64,000 nucleotides of DNA from Candidatus Latescibacterota bacterium (GTDB taxonomy: Bacteria; Latescibacterota; UBA2968; UBA8231): contig CBDCXV010000011.1 of NCBI GenBank assembly GCA_965223905.1, positions 512,001-576,000 on the forward strand, in the 5' to 3' direction. Position 1 is the stretch's first letter; every line of letters begins with the position of its first letter. The notes beneath the pieces were generated by a model that was not told where the DNA came from, did no database searches, and saw nothing but the letters and a program-made list of their open reading frames with translations. Below are positions 13,667-36,304 of the stretch, piece by piece. A program made the position numbers and the translations under genes.

Positions 13667-13876
13667 CCTGCCTTCTCGACCCGCCTCCGGCGCCGGCCGT
13701 ACGGGGGGTGTGCCCTCAACGGTCCCTCAGGCCCCGGATTGATCCTGATACGGGCCGACAGGAAACAAAACCGAACTGCGAGCTCTGTCGAAGGACCTGC
13801 AAACGATCCTCAGGAACCTGCCGGACCCTTACGGTGCGTTCAGCGCCTTGGCCAAGAGTCCAAAAAGGTGCCTTGG

Positions 13877-15206: not shown

Positions 15207-15326
15207 GACGACGACGTCTGGGACGTCGTATGGGCGGCACAACTCTCGAACAGATCCGACTATCTGGGGTATCTGGTGACCTTGACCTTACAGACCTTTA
15301 TCACGATTATCGCCGGTCTGGAGTAA
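15207..15326 (+). pseudogene. 3' relic of a paralog of the 18855-21599 gene
   Basis: DDDVWDVVWAAQLSNRSDYLGYLVTL/TLQTFITIIAGLE-stop aligns to 21423-21599 with an in-frame 57 bp gap. Confidence 0.85.
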
Positions 15327-15431
15327 CCGATGCCACATGTCAAACCGTCAGAAAGGAGGTCAAGGGTAGAGTCGTGTGGCTCATCATCGCGAACCATTTC
15401 TTAACATTCTTTACACGTTGTGAGGATATCC

Positions 15432-16397
15432 ATGAAAGCAAAGTATCTGCTCGTAGCAGCGATGGGCCTCATGCTGGGGTTATCGACCAGCGCCTCGGCC
15501 CATTCTGCTGTTCAATCGACGGACGTTTTCGCCGCGGCGTTCCCTGCGGGCACTGAGCCCGTGGTCGATGGTGATCTGGGTGAGTGGGACTGGATCAGAG
15601 AGACCAGTCTCAGAGACGTCTACACCCTTTCCGCTCAGGATTTCAACTACCAGGCCCGGGGTGGAAACCCGGACGGTATCGCGGAAGATTTCTTTCCAGC
15701 CGGTGACAACACCAATCTCGAGGACTTCAACTTCAACATAACCCTGGGCTACGGTCCGGGAACCAATCTCCTGTACCTGGGGATTGAGATCTTCGACAAC
15801 GACCACGTGCGCTGGGCGACCCCGGATCAGTTGTGGCAAGAGGACGGCTTCAACATGTGGATGGATCCCGACCACGATGATGAGTTCGGCGGCACCAGTG
15901 TTCCCCCTCGACCCTTTCAGGAGATTCTCTTTGCTCCCCAAAAGCTGGATGGAGAGAATGCGTTGATCGAGTCCGATGGCAACTCCTGGCAGGTTGCTCA
16001 CGATGAGCTCATTTGCGCCGACCCGGGCAGCTGTCACGACAATCGGGTATTCGACGTTGCCTTCACTAACGACGGTCCGGAGTTCGGAGAAACCACCACC
16101 TTCATCGAAGCGTGGGTCGAACTCTACAACTACCTGGATCCTGACGAGTCATTGCATGCCTCAGACAGCGACCCCCACATCATGAACCCGGAAGGCGTGA
16201 TCGGATTCAACATCTATTTCCAGGACATGGACACGATAGATGGCGAAATCGCCTACACCAACCGTTACTTCAATACCGAGAATACCGGTGACCCAAACGG
16301 GTTCGGGGATGTATTCCTGGCGCCGCTCGAGGCGGACGCCCCGACGGCCGTCGAATCGACGACCTGGGGTCGAATCAAGGCGGCGAATGTCAACTGA
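15432..16397 (+). CDS. Secreted CBM9/DOMON-like protein with C-terminal WGRIK tail (copy 1)
   Basis: Signal peptide ending ASA-H; VDGDLGEW, LYLGIEIFD, EDGFNMWMD, IGFNIYFQD; ends TAVESTTWGRIKAANVN. Confidence 0.8.
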   Translation: MKAKYLLVAAMGLMLGLSTSASAHSAVQSTDVFAAAFPAGTEPVVDGDLGEWDWIRETSLRDVYTLSAQDFNYQARGGNPDGIAEDFFPAGDNTNLEDFNFNITLGYGPGTNLLYLGIEIFDNDHVRWATPDQLWQEDGFNMWMDPDHDDEFGGTSVPPRPFQEILFAPQKLDGENALIESDGNSWQVAHDELICADPGSCHDNRVFDVAFTNDGPEFGETTTFIEAWVELYNYLDPDESLHASDSDPHIMNPEGVIGFNIYFQDMDTIDGEIAYTNRYFNTENTGDPNGFGDVFLAPLEADAPTAVESTTWGRIKAANVN

Positions 16398-16498
16398 AGA
16401 GTCCATGGCGAGATGACCGGGCGGCAACGCATTTCACACCGTGCGGCGCCACGGGATTCTGCCTAGACTCAAAACTGCAACAAGGACATTCACGGTCT

Positions 16499-16532
16499 GG
16501 AGGAGAGAGGGTCGCCCGATCCTCCCTCCTCC
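16499..16532 (+). terminator. GC-rich stem-loop after the WGRIK gene (terminator or mRNA-stabilising hairpin); second copy 22781-22814
   Basis: GGAGGAGAGAGGGTC...GATCCTC(C/T)CTCCTCC inverted repeat; no strong U-tract. Confidence 0.45.
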
Positions 16533-16580
16533 GTCTTGCTGGCACTTCCAGCTGCTTCGAAGTTCGCGTACCGAAATCAG

Positions 16581-16609
16581 TTGGATTAGCGGATGTTTTT
16601 CATTATAAT
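16581..16609 (+). promoter_or_regulatory. Candidate sigma70 promoter
   Basis: TTGGAT-N17-TATAAT about 120 bp upstream of the 16731 start, in an AT-rich spacer. Confidence 0.45.
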
Positions 16610-16730
16610 GGCAGGATGCTTTTCTCTGTCCTTGTATTTCAGCCAGGATTAAGACACGGTAGCGCCCCCATTAACCGGCTGGGTTGGTGGGTTGGGTTGT
16701 TCGCGGGCGGTCGTTTCGATTCGAGAGCAT

Positions 16731-18836
16731 ATGATGGGATCGCGCCGATGTGATGGCCCTGGGGTCCCGCGGCGGGCGCGCGCCAGCACGGTCCGTCGTA
16801 GGCGCTGTAGTGCGCTGCTCTCAAGGTGCGACGGCACTTTTCGCGGCCTCGCGCTGGTTGGCCTGTGCTGCTTCATACCCAAAGCTGCGGACAGCTTTGA
16901 AACCATCGTCGTCGGCGGTGGCTCTGATCCCTGGCAGGAGGGCGGCGACGGCATCGATCCGGAATTCTGGATCGCCCCCCAGGAGGTCGAGGTCGCCAAC
17001 TCCGTGGGCGGAGCCATAGACTTCACCTCCCTCCCCGGCTCGATCCTTCCAGCTTTCATCGACACGACGGAGAATCTCGCGCTCGGAGCGCTGGCCCGCG
17101 GCGGATCCATCAAAGCGCCCAACGTGCTGGAGCAGAGCCGCACCGAGTTGCAGAGGATTCTCGGCGACATCATCGATGGCAGTCCCGGCAAGGCGTTCGA
17201 GCGCAAGAGCACTGATACGCAGCACGTAAACCCCAACGGGATATTCATCGTCCTCGACCTCGGAGGGCGTTTTGGGGTGAACCGAATCCGCTTCTACCCG
17301 CGCAATACGATCCTCGAGAACCCGGGCACACCCTTTCACTTCGATTACCTCCGCGGCTATGAACTCAGCACCAACGATGGATCAGCGGCCACGACTACGG
17401 AAGCCGGGGATCCCGTTTTCGCAGTCCTTCATCGGGAGGATCAGAACAAGGATGCCGTAGTCGATTTCCGCTTCGATCTGCAATTCGTCCGCTATCTCGA
17501 GTTGAAGTCGGTGACGACGGTGGGGTTCGAAATCGATGAACTGGAGGTCTTCGGCAAGGGGTTCGTGCCCGAGGCGGTATTCCTGTCGGACGTCATCGAT
17601 CTCCGCAGGCCCGCACTGTTGGATGCGATCCGGTGGTCGGAAGAGGCGATCGGGGACTCAGCGTTATCCCGATTGCTGATGAGAACCAGGGTGGGCGATG
17701 ACGCCACCCCCCTGGTCTACACCAGGATCATTGAGGGCCTGGGCACGGAGACGCCGCTCTCGGCAAGAACGGGCGAGCCCCTCACCTTGGAGGAGTACGA
17801 CGAGCTCGGAGTGGCGGCAAAAGGACCGGTGAAACCCGACGCCGAAAACTGGAGCCCCTGGTCAGCACCCTACCCCGAGGACGCGGGTAGTGGAACGCAG
17901 ATCGCTTACTCCAGGCCCCGCCGATTCGTCCAGTTCGAGGCTTCGATCCGCAGCAGCCTTGCGGCCACCCGCTCTCTGAGCCTGGTGGAAATGGATTACA
18001 CCATCACTCCTCTGGCTGCCGCTCTAACCGCGGAGATCTTTCCGCGCTCGGTCGAGCCGGCGGTGCCGACACCGTTTACCTACGCCGTGCGAGCCGACTT
18101 GTCTCGCGGCGTGAACTCCGGCTTCGACCGCTTGGTGATTGCCACACCGGAAGCCGTCACTCGGGTGGACAGGATCGAGTTGCGCGACGCAGACGGCATG
18201 GTGGTGGCAGGGCAGGATTTCGGTGATTTTCTGGCCGCGGCGCACCTGCCGTTGCGCCGCGGCGAATTCGGCATAGAGGAACTGCACCGCGATCGTCTGC
18301 ACATCAGTTTTCCGAAGATCACCGTCGACCAGACCCTGCTGCAGGTACAGTTCCACAGCAGCGTATTCCGTCACAGCACCCCGTTCGTGGGACAAGCGTT
18401 GAACAGCGAGCTCCCGGAAGCGAGGCAGCCACTGGAGCCGGGCAATGCAACGGTGTTGGCCGCAGACGATTTGGACAGCTCGTCCGGTCTGGCGGTGGAG
18501 ACCGTCCTGGGAAACCGGTTGATCGCCGCTCTGGTTGCCACACCCAATCCCTTCACTCCAGATGGAGACGGGATCAACGAGGTGACGACGATCTCCTACG
18601 GTATCCTCAAGCTGGATCTCGGCAGGCAGGTGCAGGTAGTCATTTTCGATCTTTCCGGACGCCCCGTGCGTTCGCTCTACGACGGCAACGACAGCAGCGG
18701 AGAGTACCGGTGGGCCTGGGATGGAACGGATGACAGGGGCAAGCTCCTCGTCCCGGGGACTTACCTGTTTCGCGTGTCGGTGGAGGGAGACCTCGAGCAC
18801 CAGCGCGCCGTCGGGGTCATCAATATGGTGTATTGA
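16731..18836 (+). CDS. Secreted protein: discoidin-like domain, WSxWS domain, FlgD-Ig/type-B T9SS-like CTD
   Basis: VLDLGGRFGVNRIRFYP, EIDELEVFGKGF, NWSPWS, PNPFTPDGDGINE..IFDLSGRPV..WDGTDDRGK..PGTYL; ends MVY; start uncertain. Confidence 0.8.
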   Translation: MMGSRRCDGPGVPRRARASTVRRRRCSALLSRCDGTFRGLALVGLCCFIPKAADSFETIVVGGGSDPWQEGGDGIDPEFWIAPQEVEVANSVGGAIDFTSLPGSILPAFIDTTENLALGALARGGSIKAPNVLEQSRTELQRILGDIIDGSPGKAFERKSTDTQHVNPNGIFIVLDLGGRFGVNRIRFYPRNTILENPGTPFHFDYLRGYELSTNDGSAATTTEAGDPVFAVLHREDQNKDAVVDFRFDLQFVRYLELKSVTTVGFEIDELEVFGKGFVPEAVFLSDVIDLRRPALLDAIRWSEEAIGDSALSRLLMRTRVGDDATPLVYTRIIEGLGTETPLSARTGEPLTLEEYDELGVAAKGPVKPDAENWSPWSAPYPEDAGSGTQIAYSRPRRFVQFEASIRSSLAATRSLSLVEMDYTITPLAAALTAEIFPRSVEPAVPTPFTYAVRADLSRGVNSGFDRLVIATPEAVTRVDRIELRDADGMVVAGQDFGDFLAAAHLPLRRGEFGIEELHRDRLHISFPKITVDQTLLQVQFHSSVFRHSTPFVGQALNSELPEARQPLEPGNATVLAADDLDSSSGLAVETVLGNRLIAALVATPNPFTPDGDGINEVTTISYGILKLDLGRQVQVVIFDLSGRPVRSLYDGNDSSGEYRWAWDGTDDRGKLLVPGTYLFRVSVEGDLEHQRAVGVINMVY

Positions 18837-18854
18837 GTTTCTCCCGGCCGATCT

Positions 18855-21599
18855 TTGAACGATCGGGTCGGGCAGATGCTCGTACCGACACCATCGTGCA
18901 GATGGGAGCGGAAAGTGATAGTACCCTCAGGCAGAGCTCGATGTCCCGTGGCAGGGATCGCAGCGGTACTACTGTTGCTCGTCGACCCCTCGACGGTTGC
19001 TGGCGAGGATTTCGGCAGCCGCCTGGGGGCCCGCCGGGGCGGCGAGTTGACCTTTGTTCCGCAGGGCGCAGGAGTGTTGTTCAGCGCGCTCGATCCGACG
19101 GTCAAGCGCTGGTACGTGCCGCAGGAGTTGTTCAATGAATACCGGTGGAAACAGTGGGAATACTCCAACTTCGCGAGAGATCCGTACGAGCGCTATGTCG
19201 ATATTGCCCTCGAGGGTAACTACTTCTACGATCAGTTCGGTGAATTCGTCTCCAAAGGTTGGCTCATCTACGATTGGCGGCAGACCCAACCGCGCCAGTT
19301 CGGCAACTCCATCTACAAAGACGGTCGCTTCAGCAGCTGGTTCAGTCGGGTGCTCATCTCCGCCGATCGCAAAGACGAGCACCACTTCAGCGTCACCGTC
19401 GGCCAACCGATCCGTACGACATTAACGCCGATGACGTTCTCCAAGGTCGCCTTCGATGGCATTCAGGCGGACTATGCCGCGGACAAGTACCACGCCACGG
19501 TGGTCCTCTCCCGCGTCAACAGTCCCGGATTCACGGGATCGGGTATACCGGTCGAGCAGACCAACAGCACCGTTCTGATGGGCGGACGGGCGACCGCGCA
19601 GGTGGGCGATTTCGCTACCGTCGGCGCGACGTACGTGAATGGGCATCAGGCGCAAACCCTGCATGACAACTTCCTCGAGGACGTGTTCAGCGGCAGCCTC
19701 ACGGTGGACCAGAACGCGATTCCCATCTCGTGGATCGAGATTCACCTCAAAGATGACTCACCTGAAGATGGAGAAGGAGGGGCGACCTATTTCCCAGCTG
19801 GATCAGACATCATCATCACCTACGCCGACGGGGTCGAGGAAGAGGGTGAGTCCTTCGGTTTCACCCCGATCATACAGGGGGGATTTTCCGGTCTGGGGTC
19901 CATCTCAGCAGACGGGGAGGAGACCATCCGGATCCGCTACGACTTTGACAGCCAGGCCTTTCTCACCGGGGCACACGCCGGCAAAGCCGATATCGAGCAG
20001 ATCCGCTTCCGCCTGGTCCTGTCGAATGATTACCAGGTATGGGCCACCTCCAATCGCCAGAGCAACCGCTCAGGACAACCGGTCCTGTTGCTGATCACCC
20101 AGGCCAAAGGCAACGTCAAGGACAACTCCAGCCAACGGCTCGTCGAATTCGAGTACGGCTTGCCCACCAGCAACCAGATCCTGGGGTACACCCTGGAGCT
20201 CCACGATGTTGAGGGCTTTCAGCTCTACTTCGAACACAACATCAATCACCGTTTCCGAAAATACCCCAGTGTCGGACTGCAGTCGCACCCCACGTCGTCG
20301 GGGATCCTGGGAGACGAGTTTGGCGAGGCGTGGATGATCAACCTCTCCCGCCAGAGCTACCCATGGTTCTTCTTCGCCGAGGGCTTCAGCATGGACCCCG
20401 AATACGCGACCGATATCTTCCTCACCAGCGGCAACGGGGTGATGGATTACGAGACGGTGAGATTGGGACGTTTCGAGTTCGTGGATGACAACGATGACCA
20501 GGATAGATTTCCTGACTGGGACCGGGTCTTTGAGCCCCATGAAGACGCGGTTTTCCCGGGCTGGGACGAGAACAACGACTTCGTTTCCGATTTCAATCAG
20601 AATGACAATGATCTGCGTCCGAACCTGATCCCCGACTACGAGGAGCCCTTCCTGCGCATCGACGTCGATCCGCCGGAGTTTCTGTTTGGAATCGATCTGA
20701 ACAACAACGTCTGGATCGATCGCTTCGAGAACGACGAAGCGGCAGACTATCCCTACAAGAAGGACCACCGGGGGTACAACGTTTATGTCGGCACCCACGT
20801 GACTCCCGAAACGAGATTGAGCGTCGGCCAGGTGCGGGATCGTTTGATCTCGTCGAACCAGGAGAATGTCACGACCTACGGTCTGGTCACTCTGGAAAAG
20901 GATCTCGCCGGTTTGGGGAGGCTGCGCCTCTTCGACATGGTCAAGAGGGCCGAGGACGACATTCCGGATCACCTATTGCAGTGGGTCCAACCCTTCGATT
21001 CGCGGGGCGAGCACCAGCAGTTGCGCGATCAACGCCTCGCTCGGCGCACCTGGATCAACACGGCATGGTTGGGCTTCGACTATACGGCCATCCGCCGGTT
21101 CAGGCTGGACACCAAACTCAAATACGAAGTGTATGACCAGCGGGGCGAGAAAAGCGAGATCGATGCGCGGGGGGTCAGACCGAGCGACTATTTCTTCGGC
21201 TTGGTCAACAGGGCGAGCTATGTCTTCCAATTCGGGCGCTTGAGAGTACAACCCAATTGGAAGAGCCTGCTGCGCCTGCAAACCTATGACATACTGCGCG
21301 CCGAGAAACGCCGCGAATGGATGCAGATCTACAACCTGCGTCTCAATTTTCCGCTGCTCTCCGGATCGACGATCGATCTGGGCGTCGAGCACATGCGTTT
21401 CAATGACCTGCGCAAGCAGACCGACGACGACTTCTGGGAAGTCGTTTGGGCAGCCCAGCTTTCGAACACATCCGCCTATCTGGGATATCTGGTGACCATG
21501 AAAACGGGCTTCGACGTCAGCACTCGAAAAGCAGCAGACTCGGACGACACGACCAACATCCTGCAGTCGTTCATCACCATCATCGCCGGCCTGGAGTAA
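18855..21599 (+). CDS. Large exported protein, predicted outer-membrane beta-barrel with Asp/Asn-rich Ca-binding loops
   Basis: Hydrophobic N-terminal segment; DDNDDQDRFPD, DENNDFVSD, DLNNNVWID; C-terminal third has alternating aromatic/hydrophobic strands; start uncertain. Confidence 0.65.
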   Translation: MNDRVGQMLVPTPSCRWERKVIVPSGRARCPVAGIAAVLLLLVDPSTVAGEDFGSRLGARRGGELTFVPQGAGVLFSALDPTVKRWYVPQELFNEYRWKQWEYSNFARDPYERYVDIALEGNYFYDQFGEFVSKGWLIYDWRQTQPRQFGNSIYKDGRFSSWFSRVLISADRKDEHHFSVTVGQPIRTTLTPMTFSKVAFDGIQADYAADKYHATVVLSRVNSPGFTGSGIPVEQTNSTVLMGGRATAQVGDFATVGATYVNGHQAQTLHDNFLEDVFSGSLTVDQNAIPISWIEIHLKDDSPEDGEGGATYFPAGSDIIITYADGVEEEGESFGFTPIIQGGFSGLGSISADGEETIRIRYDFDSQAFLTGAHAGKADIEQIRFRLVLSNDYQVWATSNRQSNRSGQPVLLLITQAKGNVKDNSSQRLVEFEYGLPTSNQILGYTLELHDVEGFQLYFEHNINHRFRKYPSVGLQSHPTSSGILGDEFGEAWMINLSRQSYPWFFFAEGFSMDPEYATDIFLTSGNGVMDYETVRLGRFEFVDDNDDQDRFPDWDRVFEPHEDAVFPGWDENNDFVSDFNQNDNDLRPNLIPDYEEPFLRIDVDPPEFLFGIDLNNNVWIDRFENDEAADYPYKKDHRGYNVYVGTHVTPETRLSVGQVRDRLISSNQENVTTYGLVTLEKDLAGLGRLRLFDMVKRAEDDIPDHLLQWVQPFDSRGEHQQLRDQRLARRTWINTAWLGFDYTAIRRFRLDTKLKYEVYDQRGEKSEIDARGVRPSDYFFGLVNRASYVFQFGRLRVQPNWKSLLRLQTYDILRAEKRREWMQIYNLRLNFPLLSGSTIDLGVEHMRFNDLRKQTDDDFWEVVWAAQLSNTSAYLGYLVTMKTGFDVSTRKAADSDDTTNILQSFITIIAGLE

Positions 21600-21714
21600 C
21601 CATGGCCGCATTCATTGCCACGGAAAGGAGGTGCAGAGTAAGGTCGTGTGGCCCTTCCACGCAAGGGAATATTTCATCAATTAACCAGTGAGAGCAATCA
21701 TGAAAGGAGCAATC

Positions 21715-22680
21715 ATGAAAGCGAAGTATCTGCTCGTAGCAGCGATGGGCCTCATGCTGGGGTTATCGACCAGCGCCTCGGCCCATTCTGCTGTTCAATC
21801 GGCGGACATTTTCGCCGCCGCGTTCCCCGCCGGCACTGAACCCGTGACCGATGGAGATCTGGGTGAGTGGGACTGGATCAGAGAGACCAGTCTCAGAGAC
21901 GTCTACACCCTTACCGCTCCGCAGTTCAACTACCAGGCGCGGGGTGGAAACCTGGATGGCCTCACGGAAGATCTCTTTCCAGCCGGTGACAACACCAATC
22001 TCGAGGACTTCAACTTCAACATGACCCTGGGCTACGGTCCGGGAACCAATATGCTGTACCTGGGGATTGAGATCTTCGACAACGACCACGTGCGCTGGGC
22101 GAACCCCGATAATTTGTGGCAGGAGGACGGCTTCAACCTGTGGTTGGATCCCGACCACGACGATGAGTTCGGCGGCACCAGTGTTCCCCCTCGGGAGTTC
22201 GAGAAAATTATCTTTGCTCCCGAAATTCTGGATGGAGAGAATGCCCGAATCGAGTCCGATGGCGCTGACTGGCACGTTGGTCACGATTCGATGATTTGCT
22301 CCGGCCCGGACACCTGTCACGACGATCGGATATTCGACGTTGCCTTCACTAACGACGGTCCGAAGTACGGAGAAACCATCACTTTCGTCGAAGCGTGGGT
22401 CGAACTCTACAACTACCTGGATCCTGACCGGTCATTGCATGCCTCAGACAGCGACCCCCACATCATGAACCCGGAAGGCGTGATCGGATTCAACATCTAT
22501 TTCCAGGACGTGGATTTTGTAGATGGCGAAATCGCTTACACCAACCGTTACTTCAATACCGAGAATACCGGTGACCCAAACGGGTTCGGGGATGTATTCC
22601 TGGCGCCGCTCGAGGCGGACGCCCCGACGGCCGTCGAATCGACGACCTGGGGTCGAATCAAGGCGGCGAATGTCAACTGA
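21715..22680 (+). CDS. Secreted CBM9/DOMON-like protein with C-terminal WGRIK tail (copy 2)
   Basis: 321-aa paralog of 15432-16397; AAAGGAG RBS. Confidence 0.8.
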   Translation: MKAKYLLVAAMGLMLGLSTSASAHSAVQSADIFAAAFPAGTEPVTDGDLGEWDWIRETSLRDVYTLTAPQFNYQARGGNLDGLTEDLFPAGDNTNLEDFNFNMTLGYGPGTNMLYLGIEIFDNDHVRWANPDNLWQEDGFNLWLDPDHDDEFGGTSVPPREFEKIIFAPEILDGENARIESDGADWHVGHDSMICSGPDTCHDDRIFDVAFTNDGPKYGETITFVEAWVELYNYLDPDRSLHASDSDPHIMNPEGVIGFNIYFQDVDFVDGEIAYTNRYFNTENTGDPNGFGDVFLAPLEADAPTAVESTTWGRIKAANVN

Positions 22681-22844
22681 AGAGTCCATGGCGAGATGAC
22701 CGGCGGCAACGCATTTCACACCGTGCGGCGCCACGGGATTCTGCCTAGACTCAAAACTGCAACAAGGACATTCACGGTCTGGAGGAGAGAGGGTCGCCCG
22801 ATCCTCTCTCCTCCGTATTGCTGGCACTTCCAGTTGCTTCGAAG
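21715..22844. repeat. Direct repeat, copy B; partner 15432-16562
   Basis: Direct sequence comparison. Confidence 0.95.
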
Positions 22845-22858
22845 CGGGGCGTGAAAAC

Positions 22859-25417: not shown

Positions 25418-25434
25418 GCGCAGAGAGGATAGAC

Positions 25435-27339: not shown

Positions 27340-27367
27340 TGCGGGCTGACCCCCTGCCGTCCTGCCG

Positions 27368-29350
27368 ATGGATCAGCCTGTTTTCCCGGCACAACGCAAC
27401 AACACTTCGGCCGCCATCGTCAGAGGTTGCACCGCCCGGGCCTTGATCATCGGTTTGGGGGGGGCTCTGTGCATAAGCCTGGGCTCGACCTACAACGACA
27501 TGATCATCAAGGGCCCTCCGTTGGCCCGTTGGAGCGTCACGCCAGCAGCGATCTTCCTGTTCTTCATCCTCGTCGCCGTCGTCAACACCTTCCTGGGTCT
27601 CATCCACCGCCCCCTGGCACTGCAGCGGGGCGAGTTGGCGGTGGCCTACGTGCTCATGGTGCTGGGCAACACCCTGTCGGGCGGGCTCTCGGGATATGTT
27701 TTACCCGTCATCAGTGGGCCCTATTACTACGCGACGCCCGCCAACAACTGGCGCGAGGATGTGCTCCCTTTCCTGCCGGATTGGATAGGCCCTCGGGATG
27801 CCGATGTCATCCGCGACTTCTACGAAGGCAACCCTACCGGCGGCATACCCTGGGAAGTATGGTCTCTGCCCTTGCTCCTGTGGCTCCTGTTCGCGCTGGC
27901 GCTGTTCCTCGTCATGGTCTGCATGATGGTGATCCTGCGCCGGCAATGGGTGGATCACGAGAAGCTCGCCTACCCCATGGCGCAACTCCCGCTCGCCATG
28001 ATCGCCGACGACAAATGGGAAAGACTGGTCAAGCCGTTGTTCCGCAACTCGGTGATGTGGTTGGGTTTTGCTTGTCCTTTCGTGTTGGCGTCGCTGGATG
28101 CCCTTCACAGTTATTCGCCTACCTTCCCCCGCATCGTACTGTCTGTGGGAAGTTTCCAGTTGTTTTTCGAGCGGGCGGGCATCGGCATGCATTTCTACCC
28201 GTCCATCACCGGTTTCTCCTACCTCATCCACCAGAATGTGGCCGCCGGCCTGTGGTTCTTCTACCTCATCAGTCAACTGGAGCGCGGCGTCTTCGACGCT
28301 GTGGGCTGGTACACGCCTGAGAGCTCGGTCGGGAATTTCAGCCAGTACCTGGACCCCATCATCCTGCACCAGTGCATGGGGGCTATGGTCGCACTCGTGC
28401 TCGGATTCCTCTGGATAGGCCGGGATCACCTCAAGGCTGTGGCCCGCAAGGCGTTCTTGGGCGATCCCGAGGTGGACGATTCGGATGAAATCGTCTCCTA
28501 TCGAGTGGCCGTCGGCGGCCTTCTAACTGGCCTCGCGGGCATGGCTTTCTGGTTGTGGCAGACCGGCGTGCCCGCCCCCTACGTACCGCTGTTGCTGTTC
28601 GGGGCCTTCGTCGTATTCCTCACTGCCACGCGAGAAGCGGCCCAGGGGGGTGTGGCGGCGATGTACGCGCCGACCGTGGCCCCTGACATCGCCGTCTCCG
28701 CGGTCGGGGGATCGATTCTGGGACCGCACGGCTTGGCCGGACTGGCCCTGACCTATCCGTGGAGCACCGGTCGGGCGACGATGATGATCATGATGGTGGC
28801 CTGCGCCAACGGACTGAAGGTGATCAGCGAAGTCGATCTACCCCATCGCCGGCGCCTGTTCGGCGGTATCGTCGCCGTCATCGTCTTGAGCCTGACGGCG
28901 ACCGTCAGTCTGATCTTCTATCTCAGCTACCAGCACGGAGCCGTCAACCTGAACTGGTACTTCGAGGTCTTCGCCAAGTACCCGTACGAGTTTATGGCGA
29001 AGAACGTGGGCAATCCCACGGGACCGAACCTGAACGGGTGGATGCACAAGGGCCTGGGAGCCGGCTTGATGGCAGGACTGTTGGTACTGCAGCATCGCTG
29101 CCCCTGGTGGCCCTTCCACCCTCTGGGGTTCCCGATCGGCGCGGTCTTCGGCCGCATGTGGTTCAGCGTGTTCATCGCCTGGTTGGTCAAGGTCCTGATC
29201 CTCAAATACGGCGGTTCGAGGCTCTATTCTCGCATGAGACCGCTCTTTTTGGGCTTGATCCTCGGGGAGCTGGTGGTCGGCGGGTTCTGGGTCGTCATCG
29301 ACTCCATCACCGGCATGCAGGGCAATCATCTGGAAGGGGTGGTTTTTTGA
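27368..29350 (+). CDS. Polytopic membrane protein, DUF6785/DUF6784-like (putative OPT-related transporter)
   Basis: Many TM segments; ILRRQWVDHEKLAYPMAQLP, PWWPFHPLGF, AWLVKVLILKYGG, PLFLGLILGE. Confidence 0.8.
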   Translation: MDQPVFPAQRNNTSAAIVRGCTARALIIGLGGALCISLGSTYNDMIIKGPPLARWSVTPAAIFLFFILVAVVNTFLGLIHRPLALQRGELAVAYVLMVLGNTLSGGLSGYVLPVISGPYYYATPANNWREDVLPFLPDWIGPRDADVIRDFYEGNPTGGIPWEVWSLPLLLWLLFALALFLVMVCMMVILRRQWVDHEKLAYPMAQLPLAMIADDKWERLVKPLFRNSVMWLGFACPFVLASLDALHSYSPTFPRIVLSVGSFQLFFERAGIGMHFYPSITGFSYLIHQNVAAGLWFFYLISQLERGVFDAVGWYTPESSVGNFSQYLDPIILHQCMGAMVALVLGFLWIGRDHLKAVARKAFLGDPEVDDSDEIVSYRVAVGGLLTGLAGMAFWLWQTGVPAPYVPLLLFGAFVVFLTATREAAQGGVAAMYAPTVAPDIAVSAVGGSILGPHGLAGLALTYPWSTGRATMMIMMVACANGLKVISEVDLPHRRRLFGGIVAVIVLSLTATVSLIFYLSYQHGAVNLNWYFEVFAKYPYEFMAKNVGNPTGPNLNGWMHKGLGAGLMAGLLVLQHRCPWWPFHPLGFPIGAVFGRMWFSVFIAWLVKVLILKYGGSRLYSRMRPLFLGLILGELVVGGFWVVIDSITGMQGNHLEGVVF

Positions 29351-29353
29351 GGT

Positions 29354-32290
29354 TTGAAACCAGTATGTTCAATCCTCCTCCTCTGCGGGTGTGTCTCTGA
29401 GACCCGACCCGTAGCCGACGACCCTGCAGCTGACGGCGCGACAGGTCCCGCTGTGGCGCAGGTTCGGTTCGTGGACGTCACGGCCGCATCGGGTCTGGCC
29501 TTCACCCACGTATCGGGCAGTCCCCAGCAACGCTACATCCTGGAGACCACGGGTGGCGGAGCGGCGTTCGTGGACTATGACGGTGATGGTTTCCTGGATG
29601 TCTTCGTCGTCAACGGCACCCGTGTCGAGGAACAGCCGGAGGAGGCTCACAACCGGCTCTTCCGAAACGTCGAAGCAGCGAGTGGGCCGGGACGGCGGCA
29701 GTTCCGGGAGGTGACGGAAGAAGCCGGGTTGAAACGCTCGGGTTGGGGCATGGGTTGCGCCACCGGCGATTACGACAACGATGGCGATGTCGATCTCTAC
29801 GTCACCTACTGGGGAGCGAACGTCCTCTACCGCAACGAAGGAGACGGGACGTTCGTCGACGTGACCTCGTCCGCGGGGGTGGGAGACGAGGGTTGGGGTT
29901 CCAGCGCTGCGTTCGGGGACGTGGACGGGGATGGCCAGCTGGATTTGTACGTCGGCAATTATCTGGTCTTCGACCTGGCAGCGCCGCCCAACGACGGCCT
30001 GCCCTGCGGGGCCCTCAAAGGGTTGAAGGGCTTCTGTGGCCCTGTCGGGATGGAGGCGCAGACCGATGTGCTGTATCGCAACGAGGGCGGGGGCCGGTTT
30101 GCGGATACAGGTCCGCAAACCGGCGTCGGCCAGCACGCTTATCCCACGCTGGGTGTCGTTTTCGGAGATTACGACCAGGACGGCGACCAGGATATCTACG
30201 TGGCCAATGATGCCGAGCCCAACCTGCTGTGGCGCAACGACGGCGGCTGGCGCCTGAGTGAGGTGGGCGCCGTCGCCGGCGTGGCCTACAGCGAGGACGG
30301 CCGGGCCCAGGCCGGGATGGGAGTGGACTTCGGTGATTACGACAACGACGGCGATCTGGATCTGTACGTGACCAACTTCTCTGACGATGTGAATACGCTG
30401 TACCGGAACCGGGGCGACGGTACCTTTGCCGATGCCACGGCTCTGTCTGGCTTGGAAGGAACGGCACGGCCCTACCTGGGCTGGTCCACGTCCTTTTTTG
30501 ACGCGGACAACGATGGTTGGCTCGACCTATTCGTGGCCAATGGCCACGTCTATCCGCAGCTGGAAGAGCATCCGTCGGTGCTGCGCTACCCGCAACGGAA
30601 CCTGTTTTACCACAATCAGGATGGCGTGTTTAGCCCCGTCGATGCCGGTCCGGGCATGGAGGTTGAAAAGGTCAGTCGTGGGACCGCCTTCGGGGACTAC
30701 GACAATGACGGTGATGTGGATCTGCTGGTGATGAACCTGAACGACGCACCGACATTGCTGCGCAATGAGGGCGGCAACGCCAACAATTGGCTTGGTCTGC
30801 AGCTGGTGGGCACCACGAGCAACCGGGATGCGATCGGGGCCCGGGTGCGGGTGCAGGCCGGGGATCTGGCGCTGGTGCGGGAGGTGCAGCGCGGCTACGG
30901 CTACCAGTCTCAGCACGACCCGCGTCTGCTGTTCGGCCTGGGGTCGCGCCAACAGATGGAATGGGTGGAAATCCTCTGGCCTTCGGGACGACGGCAGCAG
31001 CTGGAGGGTCTGCCGCTGCGTCGTTATGTTGTGGTCCGCGAAGGGAGCGCCGACGTACTGGCCGGCGACGTCGTACCGCAGGATGAGTCAGCTGGCACGA
31101 CCCCCTCATCACCCGTTGCGGCAGGCTCGGCCGCCCCTGCTCCGCAGGTCGGGCAGCCGGACTGGACGGCGAAGGATTATTTCCGGGCCGGGGTTTCGTT
31201 CTATGAGCAGGCGCGTCACGGCGAAGCTCAGGCGGCGTTCGAGCAGGCCGTCGAGCACGACCCCGACTATGCTGTCGCCTACATCAATCTGGGCATAATG
31301 CTCTACTTCAAAGGCAGCTACCAGGAGGCCGCTGTCGCGGTGGAAAGAGCAGCCCGGCTGGATCCCTCCCAGGCCGAGACATTTAGCCTGCTGGGCAGGT
31401 TCTATCTCGGCCTCAACCGTCCTGACCTGGCGCTCGTGGCTTTGGGCAGGGCCACCCGGCTGGCTCCGAGCGTCTGGGAGTATCACCATTGGCGGGGACT
31501 GGCTTTTGCGCGCGCCGACAGCACCGAGGCGGCCGTGGCTGCGTTCCGTCAGGCGTCCAAACACGCACCCTGGGAGCCGTGGCCTCATCAGCGCCTCGCC
31601 CGGCAGTACAGCGAGTTGTCGCGGCCGCAGCTGGCAGCCCGCGAGCAGCAGCTGTTCGAACAGCTGGCTCCCCGCAAGCAACGGGTGGTGAGGTACCGAA
31701 GGGAGATCGAGGAATACCCCGAGAAGGCCGCTCTGCACAACAAGCTGGGCCGCGCCTACCTCGAGCAGGGTCGGCCGCGGGATGCCATGCGTCAGTTCGA
31801 CCTGGCCGTCGAGCTCGACGCGGAGTTCGGGTTGGCGCATTACGGCCGCGGAGCTGTGTTGCACCTGCAAAAGCGAACAGCCCTCGCCATCCTGGCCTAC
31901 CAGGAGGCCTGCCGGGTGCAGCCGGATCTGTTTGAGGCCTTTCACGATCTCGGGCTGGCCTACAGTCAGACCGAGCAGTACGAGAAAGCCATCGTCGCTT
32001 ACCGCAAGGCGCTGGCCCTGCAGGGGGACCGACCGTTGGTCCACAGCAACCTGGGCGATATCTATGCGACGCAAAGGCGCTTCGAGCAGGCCGCACGATC
32101 GTACGAAACGGCGCTCGAAATGAACCCAGGCCTGACTCGGACCCGCGATCTTCTCGGGCGTGTGTATGCCGCTCAGGCACGGCTGGAAGAGGCGATTCGG
32201 GAGTGGGAAATGGTGTTGCAGCAGGACCCCGACCATCCGTATGCTGGCAGTCTCCTGCGCCAGGCCCGCAAAAAACTCTCACAGAAGTGA
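29354..32290 (+). CDS. CRTAC1-family protein (FG-GAP repeats, ASPIC/UnbV) with C-terminal TPR repeats; probable lipoprotein
   Basis: Repeated GDYDNDGDxDLYV; NRDAIGARV, GYQSQHDPRLLFGLG; TPR helices; LCGC lipobox-like motif; TTG start. Confidence 0.9.
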   Translation: MKPVCSILLLCGCVSETRPVADDPAADGATGPAVAQVRFVDVTAASGLAFTHVSGSPQQRYILETTGGGAAFVDYDGDGFLDVFVVNGTRVEEQPEEAHNRLFRNVEAASGPGRRQFREVTEEAGLKRSGWGMGCATGDYDNDGDVDLYVTYWGANVLYRNEGDGTFVDVTSSAGVGDEGWGSSAAFGDVDGDGQLDLYVGNYLVFDLAAPPNDGLPCGALKGLKGFCGPVGMEAQTDVLYRNEGGGRFADTGPQTGVGQHAYPTLGVVFGDYDQDGDQDIYVANDAEPNLLWRNDGGWRLSEVGAVAGVAYSEDGRAQAGMGVDFGDYDNDGDLDLYVTNFSDDVNTLYRNRGDGTFADATALSGLEGTARPYLGWSTSFFDADNDGWLDLFVANGHVYPQLEEHPSVLRYPQRNLFYHNQDGVFSPVDAGPGMEVEKVSRGTAFGDYDNDGDVDLLVMNLNDAPTLLRNEGGNANNWLGLQLVGTTSNRDAIGARVRVQAGDLALVREVQRGYGYQSQHDPRLLFGLGSRQQMEWVEILWPSGRRQQLEGLPLRRYVVVREGSADVLAGDVVPQDESAGTTPSSPVAAGSAAPAPQVGQPDWTAKDYFRAGVSFYEQARHGEAQAAFEQAVEHDPDYAVAYINLGIMLYFKGSYQEAAVAVERAARLDPSQAETFSLLGRFYLGLNRPDLALVALGRATRLAPSVWEYHHWRGLAFARADSTEAAVAAFRQASKHAPWEPWPHQRLARQYSELSRPQLAAREQQLFEQLAPRKQRVVRYRREIEEYPEKAALHNKLGRAYLEQGRPRDAMRQFDLAVELDAEFGLAHYGRGAVLHLQKRTALAILAYQEACRVQPDLFEAFHDLGLAYSQTEQYEKAIVAYRKALALQGDRPLVHSNLGDIYATQRRFEQAARSYETALEMNPGLTRTRDLLGRVYAAQARLEEAIREWEMVLQQDPDHPYAGSLLRQARKKLSQK

Positions 32291-32318
32291 TATGACCTTT
32301 CACGCCTGGGATGGGCAC

Positions 32319-33986
32319 ATGAAATACTTCCGGATGGCCTGCTTGGGCGTCGCTTTCCTCTGTGGTGCATGCGGGGAGGCTGGCCCGCCACCCGCGGGTG
32401 AAGCCGTCGTCGCCCGCGTCGGCCGTCAAGAGATCACCGAGGCGCATCTGCTCGCCTATGTAGAGCAGTTGCCTGACAATTTGCGCTCTGAGGAGACCGG
32501 GGATGCGGCTCGTCGGCAGTATCTGCAGGCCCTGATAGACCGCCAGGTGCTGCTCATGGAGGCGCGGGACCTCGGTCTTGACACCACCCAGGCGACGCGC
32601 CAGTCCGTCCAGGAAGCACTGGACAATCGCGTGCGCAGTCTGTTTCAGGCGCGGGAGATCCGTCCCCAGATCGAGATCACGGAAGACGAGATCCGCCGCC
32701 ACTTCGATGAGGAGGGGTACGCGCGCGAACGCAACCTGCATGCGATCATGGTCAAGTCGCGCGCCGACATCGACACCGTCTTGGCGCAGCTGCAGACAGG
32801 ACGCCCCTTCGCGGAGGTGGCCGCCGCCTATTCCCTGGACCAACGCTCGGCCAAACAAGGTGGCGAGGTTGGCTTCATCGGGCGCGACAAGGTGCAGACG
32901 TACTACATCCCACCGGAGGTATTCCGCACGCTGCCCGCCGGCGAGATCTCTGCACCGATGCGGGCTGGCAGCGGCAACGCCTGGCATGTGATCCGTTTCG
33001 TCGAAGAGCGCCCCGCGGTCTACGAGAAGTACCACCCGGTCATCAACGCCCGGCTCTTCAGCGAGCGCCTGGCCCAATTGAGGGACGATCACGTTGAACG
33101 GCTCAAGGAATCGCTGCGGGTGCGCCTGGAGCCTGCGGGTGTGGAAGAAGTGGTCGCTGCCTATGGCCAGAAGAATCCCGATGCGCTCGCCGGGCGTCCC
33201 ACGCATCTGTATGTTTTCGACGGAGGGGCCATCACCGTCGGCGATGCCCGCGAGGCGTTGCAGAAGATTCCACCGCGCGGTTTGGACGACAACACGCAGG
33301 CCGTCCGCGTTTTGGAGCGAGCCGTCCTGCGCCCCGTCCTGCTCTCCGAGGCAGGGCGTCGTGCCGGGCTCTACGAGGAGCCGGAGATCCACCGGCTCGA
33401 AAAGGAAACACTCGAGAACATACTGCTCGAAACGCTCGGAGGAACCGTCTTTGCAGAGCAGGCAGACGTATCCGAAGAGGAAGTGCGGCAGTATTACGCC
33501 GACCATCGGGAGACCTTCCATCACGAAGAGGCCTTCGTGGTGGAAGAGTTGCTGGTGCCAACGGAGCTGGAGGCTGGGCAGTTGAAGGAGCAACTCGCCG
33601 GCGGCGCCACGTTCGCCGAACTGGCGGACCGCAGCCTCAGGCGCGGCGGACGCGAGAGCGAGGGACGGGGCCACTTTCACCCGCGCGAGAAATCCGCGTA
33701 CCCCACGATGGTACCGGCTGTCATGGCGGCCCCTATCGGGCAGCTCGTCGGGCCCCTGGAAGTGAAAGGGGGATATTCCGTGTTCACCTCCCATGGACTG
33801 CAAGAAGGTGAGGCCATGCCCTACGAAGACGCGCGCCGGTGGGCTCGTAACATGCTGCGGCGAGAGCGCGAGGAGCAAGCGCTGAATACCCTGCTACAGC
33901 GCCTGCGCTCGGAGTACGCGTCGCAGATCGAAATCGACGAATCCCGCCTGACCGAAGCCCTGCCCGACAGCCTGGTGCAGGGCTGA
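32319..33986 (+). CDS. PpiC/parvulin-type PPIase lipoprotein (PrsA/SurA-like, tandem domains)
   Basis: Lipobox CGAC; FAEVAAAYSLDQRSAKQGGEVGF, GEISAPM; second unit FAELADRS..VGPLEVKGGYSV. Confidence 0.88.
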   Translation: MKYFRMACLGVAFLCGACGEAGPPPAGEAVVARVGRQEITEAHLLAYVEQLPDNLRSEETGDAARRQYLQALIDRQVLLMEARDLGLDTTQATRQSVQEALDNRVRSLFQAREIRPQIEITEDEIRRHFDEEGYARERNLHAIMVKSRADIDTVLAQLQTGRPFAEVAAAYSLDQRSAKQGGEVGFIGRDKVQTYYIPPEVFRTLPAGEISAPMRAGSGNAWHVIRFVEERPAVYEKYHPVINARLFSERLAQLRDDHVERLKESLRVRLEPAGVEEVVAAYGQKNPDALAGRPTHLYVFDGGAITVGDAREALQKIPPRGLDDNTQAVRVLERAVLRPVLLSEAGRRAGLYEEPEIHRLEKETLENILLETLGGTVFAEQADVSEEEVRQYYADHRETFHHEEAFVVEELLVPTELEAGQLKEQLAGGATFAELADRSLRRGGRESEGRGHFHPREKSAYPTMVPAVMAAPIGQLVGPLEVKGGYSVFTSHGLQEGEAMPYEDARRWARNMLRREREEQALNTLLQRLRSEYASQIEIDESRLTEALPDSLVQG

Positions 33987-34051
33987 CCGATCATGGCACG
34001 ATCTCCCGCCTTCGCCAGTCGGTCAGGGCGGCCCGTCACGGAGCGATAACC

Positions 34052-36304
34052 ATGGGTCAATCTTTTGCGGCTGTTGTGAAGAGCACCGTCCCGATCGCAC
34101 TTGGCTTCTTCCTCGCCTCCTCCTGCGGCAGCGGCTCCGACCACGATCCGCAGGCGGCAGGCGGAGAAACGCCCACCCCCCCGCGCCCGGCGGGACACGA
34201 GCGCATTGTCGCACTGCTGGAAGACGTGGGCAGGCGAGCCCTGGACGAGCACCCCTTTTTCAGGGACAGGGAGGCGCGTGAGCTTCGAGCCAAGTGGGAA
34301 CGGCTTCCACAGGATGCGCCCCCGCGTCAGATCTGGGACTTGAGCGTGACCCTGGGCATGCGGGAGTTGTGGTTGGGCCGTGTGCAGGAAGCGATCGAAC
34401 ATCTGCGGCGAGGCTATGCTTTGTTGAGTGAAATCAATGTGAAGAAGTCCGAATCGGAGCGCACGATCTTTTATCTGGGCGTGGCCTATCTACGGCTGGG
34501 CGAGGTAGTAAACGGCTCCCTGCGCCCCAGCCCCCACAGCTGCATCATGCCGCTTCAGAACGGGGGATTGCACACCGACACCGAGGGTTCCCGTGCCGCC
34601 ATCGAGTATTTCAGTGAGCTCGTGAACCGGGACCCGAAAACCCGCCTGGCAGCGGTGGCTCGCTGGTTGCTGAATGTGGCCTACATGACCCTGGGCGAAT
34701 ACCCGCACAAAGTTCCGCCGGAGCACCTGATCCTGATCGAGGACATTCTCCAGCAGGAGAGAGGTTTTCCCCGGTTCGCGAACATCGCCACGCGGCTCGG
34801 CCTCGACATCTTCGATCTCGCCGGCGGCGCCATAGTCGATGACTTTGATAGCGATGGCGACCTCGACCTGGTCCTGTCGACGTGGGACACCAGCGGACCG
34901 ATGCACTACTTCCGCAACAACGGCGACGGGTCGTTCACCGACCGTACCCGGGATGCTGGCCTTACGGATCTCTACGGCGGGCTGAACATGAGGCACGCCG
35001 ACTATGACAACGACGGCGACCTGGATATTCTCGTGCTGCGCGGCGCTTGGGCGCTTGAATCTGGCCAGCATCCCAATTCTCTCCTGCGCAACCAAGGCAA
35101 CGGAACGTTCACGGACGTGACGTTCGAGGCGGGACTGGGCGATGCCCATTATCCGACGGCGACGGCCGATTGGGCCGACTACGATAACGACGGCGACATC
35201 GACCTCTACATCGGCAACGAGACCGCGGGTGGATTTCGGGCTCCCTGCCAGCTGTTTCGCAACGACGGCGATGGGTCCTTTACGGATGTAGCCGGCGAAG
35301 CCGGGGTCCAGAACTACGGATTCACGAAGGGTGTCACCTGGGGCGACTACGATGGCGACCGCTTCCCCGACCTCTACGTCTCCAATATGGGTCAACCCAA
35401 TCGGCTCTACCGCAACGACGGCGATGGGTCCTTCACAGACCGAGCGCCTGCGTTGGGCGTGACGGAACCGAAGAAAAGTTTTCCCGCTTGGTTCTGGGAT
35501 TTCGACAACGACGGTGCGTTGGACCTGTTCGTGTCGGGATGTCCTGACTTTGCCCAGGTAGCCGCCCACTACATGGGGCAGAAGATGGAAAGAGGTTTCC
35601 CGAGGCTGTACCGCGGCGACGGCAGGGGCGGTTTCGAGGATGTCACCGCCGAGCAGAGCCTGGCCTATCCGATGGTGACGATGGGATCCAACTTCGGCGA
35701 TCTGAACAACGATGGTTTCCTCGACTTCTATCTGGGCACGGGCACTTCGACCTATGAGAGCCAGATTCCCAATGTGATGTTCCTCAATCGACAGGGCCGA
35801 GGCTTCGAGGACATCACCATGGCCGGGGGGTTCGGACATCTGCAAAAGGGCCATTCCGTCGCGTTCGCCGACCTCGACCATGATGGCGACCTCGATGTCT
35901 ACCAGCAGATGGGTGGCGCTTTCCCAGGGGACAGGTTCAACAACGCCCTCTACGAGAATCCGGGATTCGGCAACCACTGGATAACGATCGAGCTGGCAGG
36001 CACCCGCTCCAACCGCGCCGCCGTCGGCGCCCGCATCCGGCTGCAGATCGAAGAGGGGGGGCGTTCACGTGCTATCTACCGCCACATCACCAACGGCAGC
36101 AGTTTCGGCAGCAACCCCTTCAGGCAGACGATCGGCCTGGGCCAGGCGGATGTTGTTCGTGAGCTCGAAGTCTACTGGCCCGCGTCGGACAGCCGACAGC
36201 TCTTCAGGAGCGTTGCCGCCGAGCGTGTTTATCGTATCACGGAAGGCGAGAACGAGTACGAAACCCTCGATCTGCCGAGGATGGTGCTGGGGGTCGGCCA
36301 GTAA
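34052..36304 (+). CDS. CRTAC1-family lipoprotein (TPR, FG-GAP repeats, ASPIC/UnbV)
   Basis: LASSC lipobox-like motif; DFDSDGDLD/DYDNDGDID repeats; GHLQKGH; NRAAVGARI. Confidence 0.9.
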   Translation: MGQSFAAVVKSTVPIALGFFLASSCGSGSDHDPQAAGGETPTPPRPAGHERIVALLEDVGRRALDEHPFFRDREARELRAKWERLPQDAPPRQIWDLSVTLGMRELWLGRVQEAIEHLRRGYALLSEINVKKSESERTIFYLGVAYLRLGEVVNGSLRPSPHSCIMPLQNGGLHTDTEGSRAAIEYFSELVNRDPKTRLAAVARWLLNVAYMTLGEYPHKVPPEHLILIEDILQQERGFPRFANIATRLGLDIFDLAGGAIVDDFDSDGDLDLVLSTWDTSGPMHYFRNNGDGSFTDRTRDAGLTDLYGGLNMRHADYDNDGDLDILVLRGAWALESGQHPNSLLRNQGNGTFTDVTFEAGLGDAHYPTATADWADYDNDGDIDLYIGNETAGGFRAPCQLFRNDGDGSFTDVAGEAGVQNYGFTKGVTWGDYDGDRFPDLYVSNMGQPNRLYRNDGDGSFTDRAPALGVTEPKKSFPAWFWDFDNDGALDLFVSGCPDFAQVAAHYMGQKMERGFPRLYRGDGRGGFEDVTAEQSLAYPMVTMGSNFGDLNNDGFLDFYLGTGTSTYESQIPNVMFLNRQGRGFEDITMAGGFGHLQKGHSVAFADLDHDGDLDVYQQMGGAFPGDRFNNALYENPGFGNHWITIELAGTRSNRAAVGARIRLQIEEGGRSRAIYRHITNGSSFGSNPFRQTIGLGQADVVRELEVYWPASDSRQLFRSVAAERVYRITEGENEYETLDLPRMVLGVGQ

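Follow-up and report, generated by a model that had tools for sequence, protein, structure and literature searches.

Cargo proteins of the type B class in type IX secretion systems (T9SS) have been described with a porP/sprF gene downstream of the cargo gene (PMC12618676). The cargo/carrier pairs described include SprB-SprF and Fjoh_3952-Fjoh_3951 of Flavobacterium johnsoniae and PG1035-PorP of Porphyromonas gingivalis, and SprF is reported to hold SprB, and PorP to hold PG1035, non-covalently at the cell surface (PMC12618676, PMC9143113, PMC12635249). Close SprF homologues are also reported to carry a Cys-Xaa-Cys motif in their periplasmic C-tail (PMC12635249). Here we describe a module of ten genes in a 64,000-nt stretch of a Candidatus Latescibacterota genome (hereafter, the window), located at positions 15207-36304 and studied together with its flanks. 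In this module the gene of a putatively secreted protein with a type-B-like C-terminal domain (C) lies directly upstream of the gene of a very large outer-membrane barrel (B), an order that mirrors the one described for a type B cargo gene and its downstream porP/sprF gene (PMC12618676).

All ten genes lie on the forward strand within 15420-36304, in the order W1, C1, B, W2, C2, C3, D, F1, P, F2. The gaps between them are short: 18 bp separate C1 from B and 88 bp separate B from W2, C2 and C3 overlap by 4 bp, and 28, 3, 28 and 65 bp separate C3 from D, D from F1, F1 from P and P from F2, respectively. This agrees with an earlier reading of the same DNA (hereafter, the original prediction), which had described about 21 kb of co-oriented genes. 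The core of the module would consist of the giant outer-membrane barrel and two to four paralogous secreted proteins of the C1, C2 and C3 types. In the window these are B (18855-21599), a 914-residue member of an unannotated family, C1 (16692-18836; 714 residues), C2 (22859-25417; 852 residues) and C3 (25414-27339; 641 residues). Each C protein has a type-B-like C-terminal tail and ends in VY, and C2 also contains an F5/8 type C domain (F5_F8_type_C, 30.3 bits with a cut-off of 28.2).

The pairing of B with C-type tails recurs throughout the genome from which the window derives (7.9 Mb, 93.6% complete). Using hmmsearch, we found 35 B-family open reading frames (ORFs) in this genome, 21 of them close relatives (>700 bits) and 14 distant ones (219-324 bits) that are often arranged in tandem. 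A hidden Markov model (HMM) of the C tail picked out 161 ORFs whose C-terminal domain has this fold. Of these, 55 end in Y or F and carry a TPNGDGxN-type motif (Y-tails), and 106 end otherwise, mostly in LR or LK. The B genes form 21 loci, each with at least one Y-tail gene. The pairing of Y-tails with B is above chance: 23 of the 55 Y/F-ending ORFs lie within 500 bp of a B gene, 44 within 5 kb and 50 within 20 kb, versus 1, 4 and 7 of the 106 other-tail ORFs. Measured at 15 kb, a distance that takes in roughly 9.5% of the genome around the B loci, the share of copies near a B gene was 49/55 for C, 14/23 for P, 23/54 for F, 20/82 for ORFs with the WGRIK tail described below and 14/54 for D. 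P and D are each present in 13 of the 21 B loci.

As judged from a control with curated models, the two tail classes are real. Twenty Y-tails drawn at random from the 52 outside the window all matched CHU_C, while none matched Por_Secre_tail and 19 matched FlgD_ig. The corresponding numbers for 20 random other tails, which end in K or R, were 7, 13 and 18. CHU_C was likewise found in all 24 C-family members scanned (E ≤ 0.01). In the window, C1 (31.1 bits) and C3 (39.2 bits) pass the gathering score of this model (PF13585; 27 bits), whereas C2 remains below it with 19.5 bits; FlgD_ig scored 42.1 bits in C1 and 26.2 bits in C3. The domain reaches the last residue in all three proteins. Their translations read PNPFTPDGDGINE...MVY in C1, PNPLTPNGDGIND...VVY in C2 and PNPFTPNGDGIND...VVY in C3, and so contain the shared PNPxTPxGDGIN(D/E) motif and VY end that had been noted from the start. 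N-terminal hydrophobic segments in the C proteins were read by eye from the sequence, and F5_F8_type_C was present in 7 of the 24 family members. C1, C2 and C3 are old paralogues with 28-32% identity (28% between C1 and C2). All three subtypes are found again at one locus after another and thus resemble fixed subunits rather than variable cargo.

The same arrangement is found in other genomes. A scan with one genome per species returned 417 relatives of B, and the best 80 loci were examined. Most of their record titles name Candidatus Latescibacterota, with up to seven loci per genome. A C gene ends between -60 and 400 bp upstream of B in 77 of the 103 forward-strand B ORFs in these foreign loci; 29 of these upstream genes are C1-like, 34 C2-like and 14 C3-like. 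The following orders of genes recur: 'P C2 B (F or TPR) C1 C3 (B) W', 'C1 B (W) C3 P C2' and 'P W C1 B C3 C2 D'. Unassigned neighbouring ORFs of at least 300 residues fell into 89 clusters, of which the 20 commonest were scanned. The commonest cluster (26 members, directly 3' of B) is a TPR protein, and other common ones include GDSL esterases, leucine-rich repeat (LRR) proteins and parts of ABC transporters with their substrate-binding proteins. In a sample of 151 genomes of the phylum, 94 contained B and 90 contained C, spread over almost the same families: both occur in 63/63 genomes of one family (f1), 0/30 of a second (f2) and 0/19 of a third (f3), a match between related genomes that is no statistical test. 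The cognate module of barrel and tail proteins that the original prediction had proposed, with synteny across genomes as a check, is therefore supported in the 80 foreign loci, in the phylum sample and in the genome of the window itself.

Gene neighbourhoods of this kind could arise by mere co-duplication of whole loci, helped by IS91-type insertion sequences (IS), with B and the tail proteins forming no physical complex. The locus in the window is indeed bracketed by two 100% identical IS91-type copies, and there is a segmental duplication inside it. The DNA at 15207-16562 is an 86-89% identical copy of 21423-22844; by this identity, the repeated 'barrel end-WGRIK gene' unit is a recent segmental copy of 1.35 kb, in which the end of B and W2 gave rise to a barrel remnant and W1. 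The barrel part of the upstream duplicate is only a 121-bp remnant (15207-15327, forward strand), which has an internal deletion, translates to the last residues of B and is 86% identical to 21423-21501. Thus, the order of barrel end, WGRIK protein and C-terminal-domain protein that had been reported to occur twice is present, but its first copy is partly a segmental duplication with no more than a remnant of the barrel. As a close sequence pair, W1 and W2 are the only two copies in the genome, while the wider W family is common. Co-duplication as the whole explanation seems to us very improbable: the pairing of B with C is kept even where paralogues share no more than 24-28% identity, and it spans families of the phylum, while the 80 foreign loci preserve the order of genes around B.

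The 914-residue protein had been described as barrel-like, with modelling as a barrel set as the test, and the model agrees. AlphaFold2 (AF2) predicted about 23-24 long antiparallel strands in residues 165-912 (mean pLDDT 65, pTM 0.65). A Foldseek search of the PDB with this model returned large outer-membrane barrels only, namely SlpA, MtrB, LptD, FimD/PapC and TonB-dependent receptors. The E-values reached 1e-8 and the TM-scores ranged from 0.15 to 0.26, and the likeness of B to known large barrels is therefore generic. In the model, tight turns alternate with longer connections. Among the longer ones are a beta-rich insert, a beta-sandwich, at residues 268-427 after the sixth strand, and an acidic, D/N-rich and poorly modelled stretch at 514-637; these inserts would either face outward or fold into the lumen. 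The N-terminal region (45-165) is highly conserved in the alignment and has low model confidence.

By sequence, B stands apart from described families. It matched no Pfam or NCBIfam family at E ≤ 0.01, and a profile of the family (27 members) matched no PDB sequence. A search of 5.8 billion protein sequences identified 889 B relatives among 8000 scored candidates. The best 120 of these carry no Pfam domain, are labelled 'hypothetical protein' and come from metagenome-assembled genomes of Latescibacteria, Handelsmanbacteria or Gemmatimonadetes. An Atlas lead to DUF6029 (score 0.88) was not borne out by Pfam. Kinship of B with PorP/SprF did not stand up either: 27 B homologues compared with Pfam at a threshold as permissive as E ≤ 10 gave three single chance matches, none of them to PorP/SprF, and B itself had no match. 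The PorP/SprF models (PF11751 and TIGR03519), run without a positive control, matched nothing in the whole genome. B ends in ...FITIIAGLE, and the alignment has no Cys in any invariant or near-invariant column and thus no Cys-Xaa-Cys tail motif. A complex prediction of B (residues 120-914) with the C1 tail (600-714), run with alignments and without controls, scored 0.00, which speaks neither for nor against binding.

Parts of a T9SS are encoded in the same genome. The search for SprA, PorV and PorU that had been proposed found SprA in one frame of 2069 residues (607 bits summed, cut-off 200) and PorU with 617 bits (cut-off 420), directly followed by a PorV-like gene that, at 91 bits, is below its cut-off of 250. 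One B-C-W locus lies 4-20 kb upstream of the SprA gene (G000:C10:1147256-1152502), which may be chance. In that region (1123030-1152502), B is located at 1126269-1128956, C at 1139013-1141094 and an ORF with a W-type tail at 1142181-1143218.

Taking linkage, domain content and the barrel model together, we tentatively favour a reading in which B is a non-homologous counterpart of PorP/SprF, that is, a carrier or anchor for T9SS-exported C proteins in a lectin-like surface complex. The C proteins would cross the inner membrane via Sec and the outer membrane via the SprA-type T9SS translocon. Their type-B-like C-terminal domain, with its TPNGDGxN motif and final (V/A)Y, would then hand them to the co-encoded B, which would keep them non-covalently at the surface. 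As a carrier or anchor, B would be roughly three times as large as PorP/SprF, and its inserts at 268-427 and 514-637, which lie on the long-loop face of the model, might form a docking platform. The discoidin-type domains of the C proteins and the neighbouring CBM9-like W proteins could make this surface complex lectin-like, and the roughly 21 diverged copies per genome might differ in ligand specificity. P (a SurA-like chaperone), the TPR and CRTAC1-type lipoproteins and, in some loci, D would be accessory parts.

Several results weigh against B as a carrier of T9SS cargo. The type-B likeness of the tails is clear with CHU_C (24/24 family members and 20/20 random Y-tails) and in the lack of Por_Secre_tail matches (0/20), but it does not extend to TIGR04131 (cut-off 35 bits), to which C1 (20.6 bits) and C3 (28.7 bits) score below the cut-off and C2 does not match. 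No similarity of B to PorP/SprF or another family could be detected, and with 24 strands the barrel goes far beyond the size that an anchor would require. Models of GldL, GldM and GldN, run without a positive control, matched nothing in this 93.6%-complete genome, and the GldK model gave only partial matches of the FGE-sulfatase type, one of them in the window (61038-61412). The component that energises this T9SS is either highly diverged or of another kind. SprA was found in 146 of the 151 phylum-sample genomes, including families that lack B and C; being near-universal, its presence is therefore uninformative about T9SS dependence. Four B-positive genomes have no SprA at 1e-10, and three of them are only 64-80% complete. 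The fourth, G015, is 96% complete (60 contigs) and its best SprA match scores 21 bits. It nevertheless has 46 tail-fold matches, including a full-length Y-tail protein (C14:61859-62149) followed by three tandem distant B genes (C14:63294-71454). Since G015 keeps a Y-tail gene together with B genes, the B-C pair is old. This genome is the best single argument against T9SS dependence, which, with the pair kept in a genome without detectable SprA, was not confirmed for the module.

G015 would fit a self-contained export and assembly system independent of the T9SS. Here B would be the pore for the C proteins, much as in usher or two-partner systems, the Y-tail would be the signal recognised by B, and P would be the dedicated chaperone. 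Such a system would account for the presence of P in 13 of the 21 loci and of 14 of its 23 copies within 15 kb of one, and for the failure to detect GldL, GldM and GldN. B reaches the size of known translocating barrels, its Foldseek matches include ushers, LptD and MtrB, and it has an insert after the sixth modelled strand. However, the tail shares homology with T9SS signal domains (CHU_C in 44/44 tails), and the genome encodes SprA, PorU and 106 type-A-like cargo candidates. The TM-scores of B to ushers are around 0.2, no usher or PapD-type domain was found, and the tail-gene and barrel order without SprA above 21 bits comes from a single genome in 60 contigs. We therefore think it unlikely that the module exports its own subunits.

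The C proteins are accompanied by the W proteins, which bring a second kind of C-terminal tail. W1 (15420-16397, likely start at 15432; 325 residues) and W2 (21688-22680, likely start at 21715; 330 residues) are 87% identical, predicted to be secreted and CBM9-like, and both end in ...TTWGRIKAANVN. The tail, TAVExxTWGRIK in W1, is encoded at 16340-16397 and 22623-22680. Neither protein matched Pfam or NCBIfam; they are the only tag-bearing proteins that were scanned with both. The AF2 model of W2 (pLDDT 69, pTM 0.69), in which the tail is a low-confidence helix, suggests a CBM9-like fold. Its best Foldseek matches were the CBM9 modules 1i82 (with cellobiose; E 1e-6, TMt 0.64) and 7nwn, followed by a Bacteroides carbohydrate-binding protein and, more weakly, heme-binding DOMON-type subunits. 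Consistent with this, CBM9_1 was found in 9 of 26 W-family members. A His directly after the predicted signal-peptidase site (AxA|H; 21784-21786 in the window) is invariant in all 26, and is accompanied by Tyr124, Asp131 and a near-invariant His157. This set could form a metal or heme site in a CBM9/DOMON-type fold. The invariant His, being at the predicted mature N-terminus, also raised the idea of a histidine-brace protein resembling lytic polysaccharide monooxygenases, which we rejected as a fold because Foldseek pointed to CBM9/DOMON.

The WGRIK tail is not confined to the W family. Among ORFs of at least 100 residues in the genome, WGx[IVLM]K occurs 103 times, 83 of them within 25 residues of the C-terminus, and all 34 occurrences of the exact WGRIK are C-terminal. 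The consensus is [TS]-A-V-E-x-x-[ST]-W-G-[RQ]-[IVL]-K-A-[SA]-[LF], with 2-7 residues after the K in 61 of 82 ORFs. Once the tail was removed, these 82 ORFs fell into at least 27 unrelated clusters (of 36, 9, 6, 5, 2, 2 and 2 members plus 20 singletons). Those with an intact start have N-terminal signal-like segments; a hydrophobic run is present in 58 of the 82, versus 36% of random ORFs, and no transmembrane segment follows the tag. Its spread over unrelated clusters and the signal-like N-termini argue that the WGRIK tail is a portable C-terminal tag, and in this respect the original prediction of two kinds of sorting signal is supported. The motif occurs 69 times in the 80 foreign loci, and 58 of these occurrences are C-terminal. 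An ORF of this kind, usually of 290-340 residues, is present in 56 loci, and for 26 of 105 foreign B ORFs one lies on the same strand no more than 400 bp away. The WGRIK coding pattern matches 45-74 times per genome within the genus, versus 0 for the reversed control, and stays close to background in families f2 and f3. A third W-family gene with a WGRIK tail (42705-43673, forward strand; end AWGRIKASLQ, tail at 43616-43673) lies outside the module, and is followed by an ORF with a PD40 beta-propeller (43523-44530, forward strand).

The 3' half of the module encodes the putative accessory proteins. D (27368-29350) is a polytopic membrane protein that scores far above the Pfam gathering thresholds of DUF6785 (396 bits, cut-off 25) and DUF6784 (98.1 bits, cut-off 26.4). 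F1 (29354-32290) is a probable lipoprotein (N-terminus LLLCGC), in which a CRTAC1-type FG-GAP/UnbV_ASPIC part is fused to TPR repeats (Pfam FG-GAP_3, UnbV_ASPIC and TPR). P (32319-33986, the likely start in an ORF that opens at 32160) is a SurA-like parvulin peptidyl-prolyl isomerase (PPIase) and probable lipoprotein, with Rotamase_2, Rotamase and SurA_N_3 matches. F2 (34052-36304) is a second CRTAC1-type probable lipoprotein (FG-GAP_3, UnbV_ASPIC), 31% identical to F1. These Pfam domains agree with the DUF6785-like protein, CRTAC1-TPR protein, PPIase and CRTAC1 protein that had been named after the C genes. PDB sequence searches with D, C2 and W2 returned nothing usable. DUF6785 and CRTAC1-type (FG-GAP/ASPIC) genes number 54 copies each in the genome, and as most of them lie away from B loci, they are part of wider gene expansions.

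A membrane protein this close to putative binding proteins raises the option of nutrient import in the manner of SusCD: B would be the substrate channel, C and W would be tethered ligand catchers with the tail merely as a tether, and D would be the inner-membrane carrier. The 21 diverged copies per genome resemble expansions of polysaccharide utilization loci (PULs) or TonB-dependent transporters, C and W have binding-type domains, and D is present in 13 of the 21 loci. In the window, D follows C3 after 28 bp and precedes F1 by 3 bp, and its nearest named Atlas clusters are peptide/OPT transporters (score 0.77-0.79), which is a lead only. On the other side, none of the ten locus proteins has a Plug, TonB_dep_Rec or SusD-type match in Pfam, only 14 of the 54 D copies come within 15 kb of a B gene and 11 within 5 kb of a C gene, and no energy-coupling part was identified. 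No glycoside hydrolase was found by Pfam in the window locus, nor among the 20 commonest unassigned neighbour families of the 80 loci. Of the glycan-binding complex coupled to an inner-membrane transporter that the original prediction had envisaged, the binding half is in keeping with the F5/8 type C domains (7/24 C proteins) and the CBM9-like W proteins, whereas the PUL-like coupling is weak. We find an import function of this kind doubtful, although it can coexist with a role of B as carrier or anchor. The two could be combined in a more daring proposal, for which we see little likelihood: B, C and W would be the Latescibacterota answer to SusCD, with T9SS-delivered lectins on a gated 24-strand channel and some 21 ligand-specific machines for capture and uptake in each cell. 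In that case the TAVExxSWGRIK tail would add a third sorting signal, so far undescribed, directing more than 80 otherwise unrelated proteins exported via Sec in each genome to the outer membrane or the cell surface.

The flanks of the module show signs of possible rearrangement. Upstream lie gene debris and an IS91/Y2-type transposase (12224-13666). The debris between the transposase and the barrel remnant (13700-15200) includes a reverse-strand fragment at 14288-14983 that we take to be PhzF-like from its motifs. The two transposase copies that bracket the whole module (12319-13504 and 40060-41245) are 100% identical over 1186 bp and in direct orientation, and the second forms an in-frame fusion with the 3' end of an amidohydrolase gene. 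The G+C content is about 0.60 inside the module and 0.65-0.70 outside. The bracket and the shift in G+C may point to a segment that is mobile or was rearranged recently, or may stem from the assembly. On the reverse strand at 37319-39286, a protein of 655 residues has a type-A-like FlgD_ig/Por_Secre_tail domain at residues 104-184, on the N-terminal side rather than at the end; it is preceded by CarboxypepD_reg and followed by a 450-residue region that belongs to no family.

Public RNA libraries give a hint of habitat. Four metatranscriptome runs from one study, labelled sponge metagenome, contained 45-52% of the sampled words of 16692-25417; runs with a word share of 0.07 or less were left out. 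Contigs from these runs were at least 99% identical to pieces of W1, C1, B, W2, C2, C3, D, F1 and F2. Such contigs indicate presence in the libraries and are no proof of transcription; their depths cannot rank the genes, and uncovered stretches carry no meaning.

We found no published description of the module. Our searches returned nothing relevant on DUF6785, on Latescibacter with T9SS/type IX secretion or with PorV, SprA or PorU, or on a WGRIK-type motif, and the available text of the 2015 Latescibacteria genome paper names non-specific porins only and makes no mention of such a module (PMC4454575). New here are the genome-wide contrast of tail classes with its curated control, the WGRIK tail as a putative portable tag, the predicted CBM9-like fold of W, the IS91 bracket and the case of G015. 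If B is indeed a carrier, the logic of a type B cargo with a private outer-membrane carrier would reach beyond Bacteroidota, by means of an unrelated and much larger barrel. It would give a role to 35 barrels and 55 tail proteins in a 7.9-Mb genome, and a context to many of the 82 WGRIK-tail ORFs, the 54 DUF6785 genes and the 54 CRTAC1-type genes. It would also hint at how an abundant uncultured lineage meets its substrates or its host, the RNA libraries with the locus being labelled sponge metagenome. The WGRIK tail, for its part, is a candidate sorting signal open to direct test.

Set beside known systems, the module shares features with three, and B belongs to none of the PorP/SprF, SusCD or usher families. 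Chaperone-usher systems have a barrel of some 24 strands into which a domain is inserted, a periplasmic chaperone encoded in the locus and several paralogous exported subunits. Similarly, the model of B has about 24 strands and an inserted domain, P is chaperone-like and there are several paralogous C subunits. Unlike those systems, the module has no usher or PapD domains, its chaperone is a parvulin PPIase, its subunits are multidomain proteins of 600-1100 residues, and the likeness in fold is generic (TM around 0.2). The PULs of the SusC/SusD type in Bacteroidota are many-copy, diverged modules with a large outer-membrane barrel, surface binding proteins and sometimes an adjacent inner-membrane transporter. 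All of these traits are found in the present module, but TonB-dependent receptor and SusD domains are absent from the locus, the binding proteins are tail-tagged rather than lipoproteins, and there are no conserved glycoside hydrolases. Compared with type B cargo and PorP/SprF, the differences are that B has 914 residues, no PorP_SprF or TIGR03519 match and no Cys-Xaa-Cys tail, that the C tails score below the TIGR04131 cut-off, that two to four conserved cargo paralogues, rather than a single one, go with each barrel, and that the module occurs as 21 loci per genome, outside Bacteroidota and with no GldL, GldM or GldN detected. Like type B systems, however, it comprises a secreted protein with a CHU_C C-terminal domain, a barrel gene directly downstream, a link specific to one tail class and not to type-A-like tails, and SprA and PorU in the genome. 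By this analogy, the logic closest to that of the module would be the type B cargo with its private PorP/SprF carrier.

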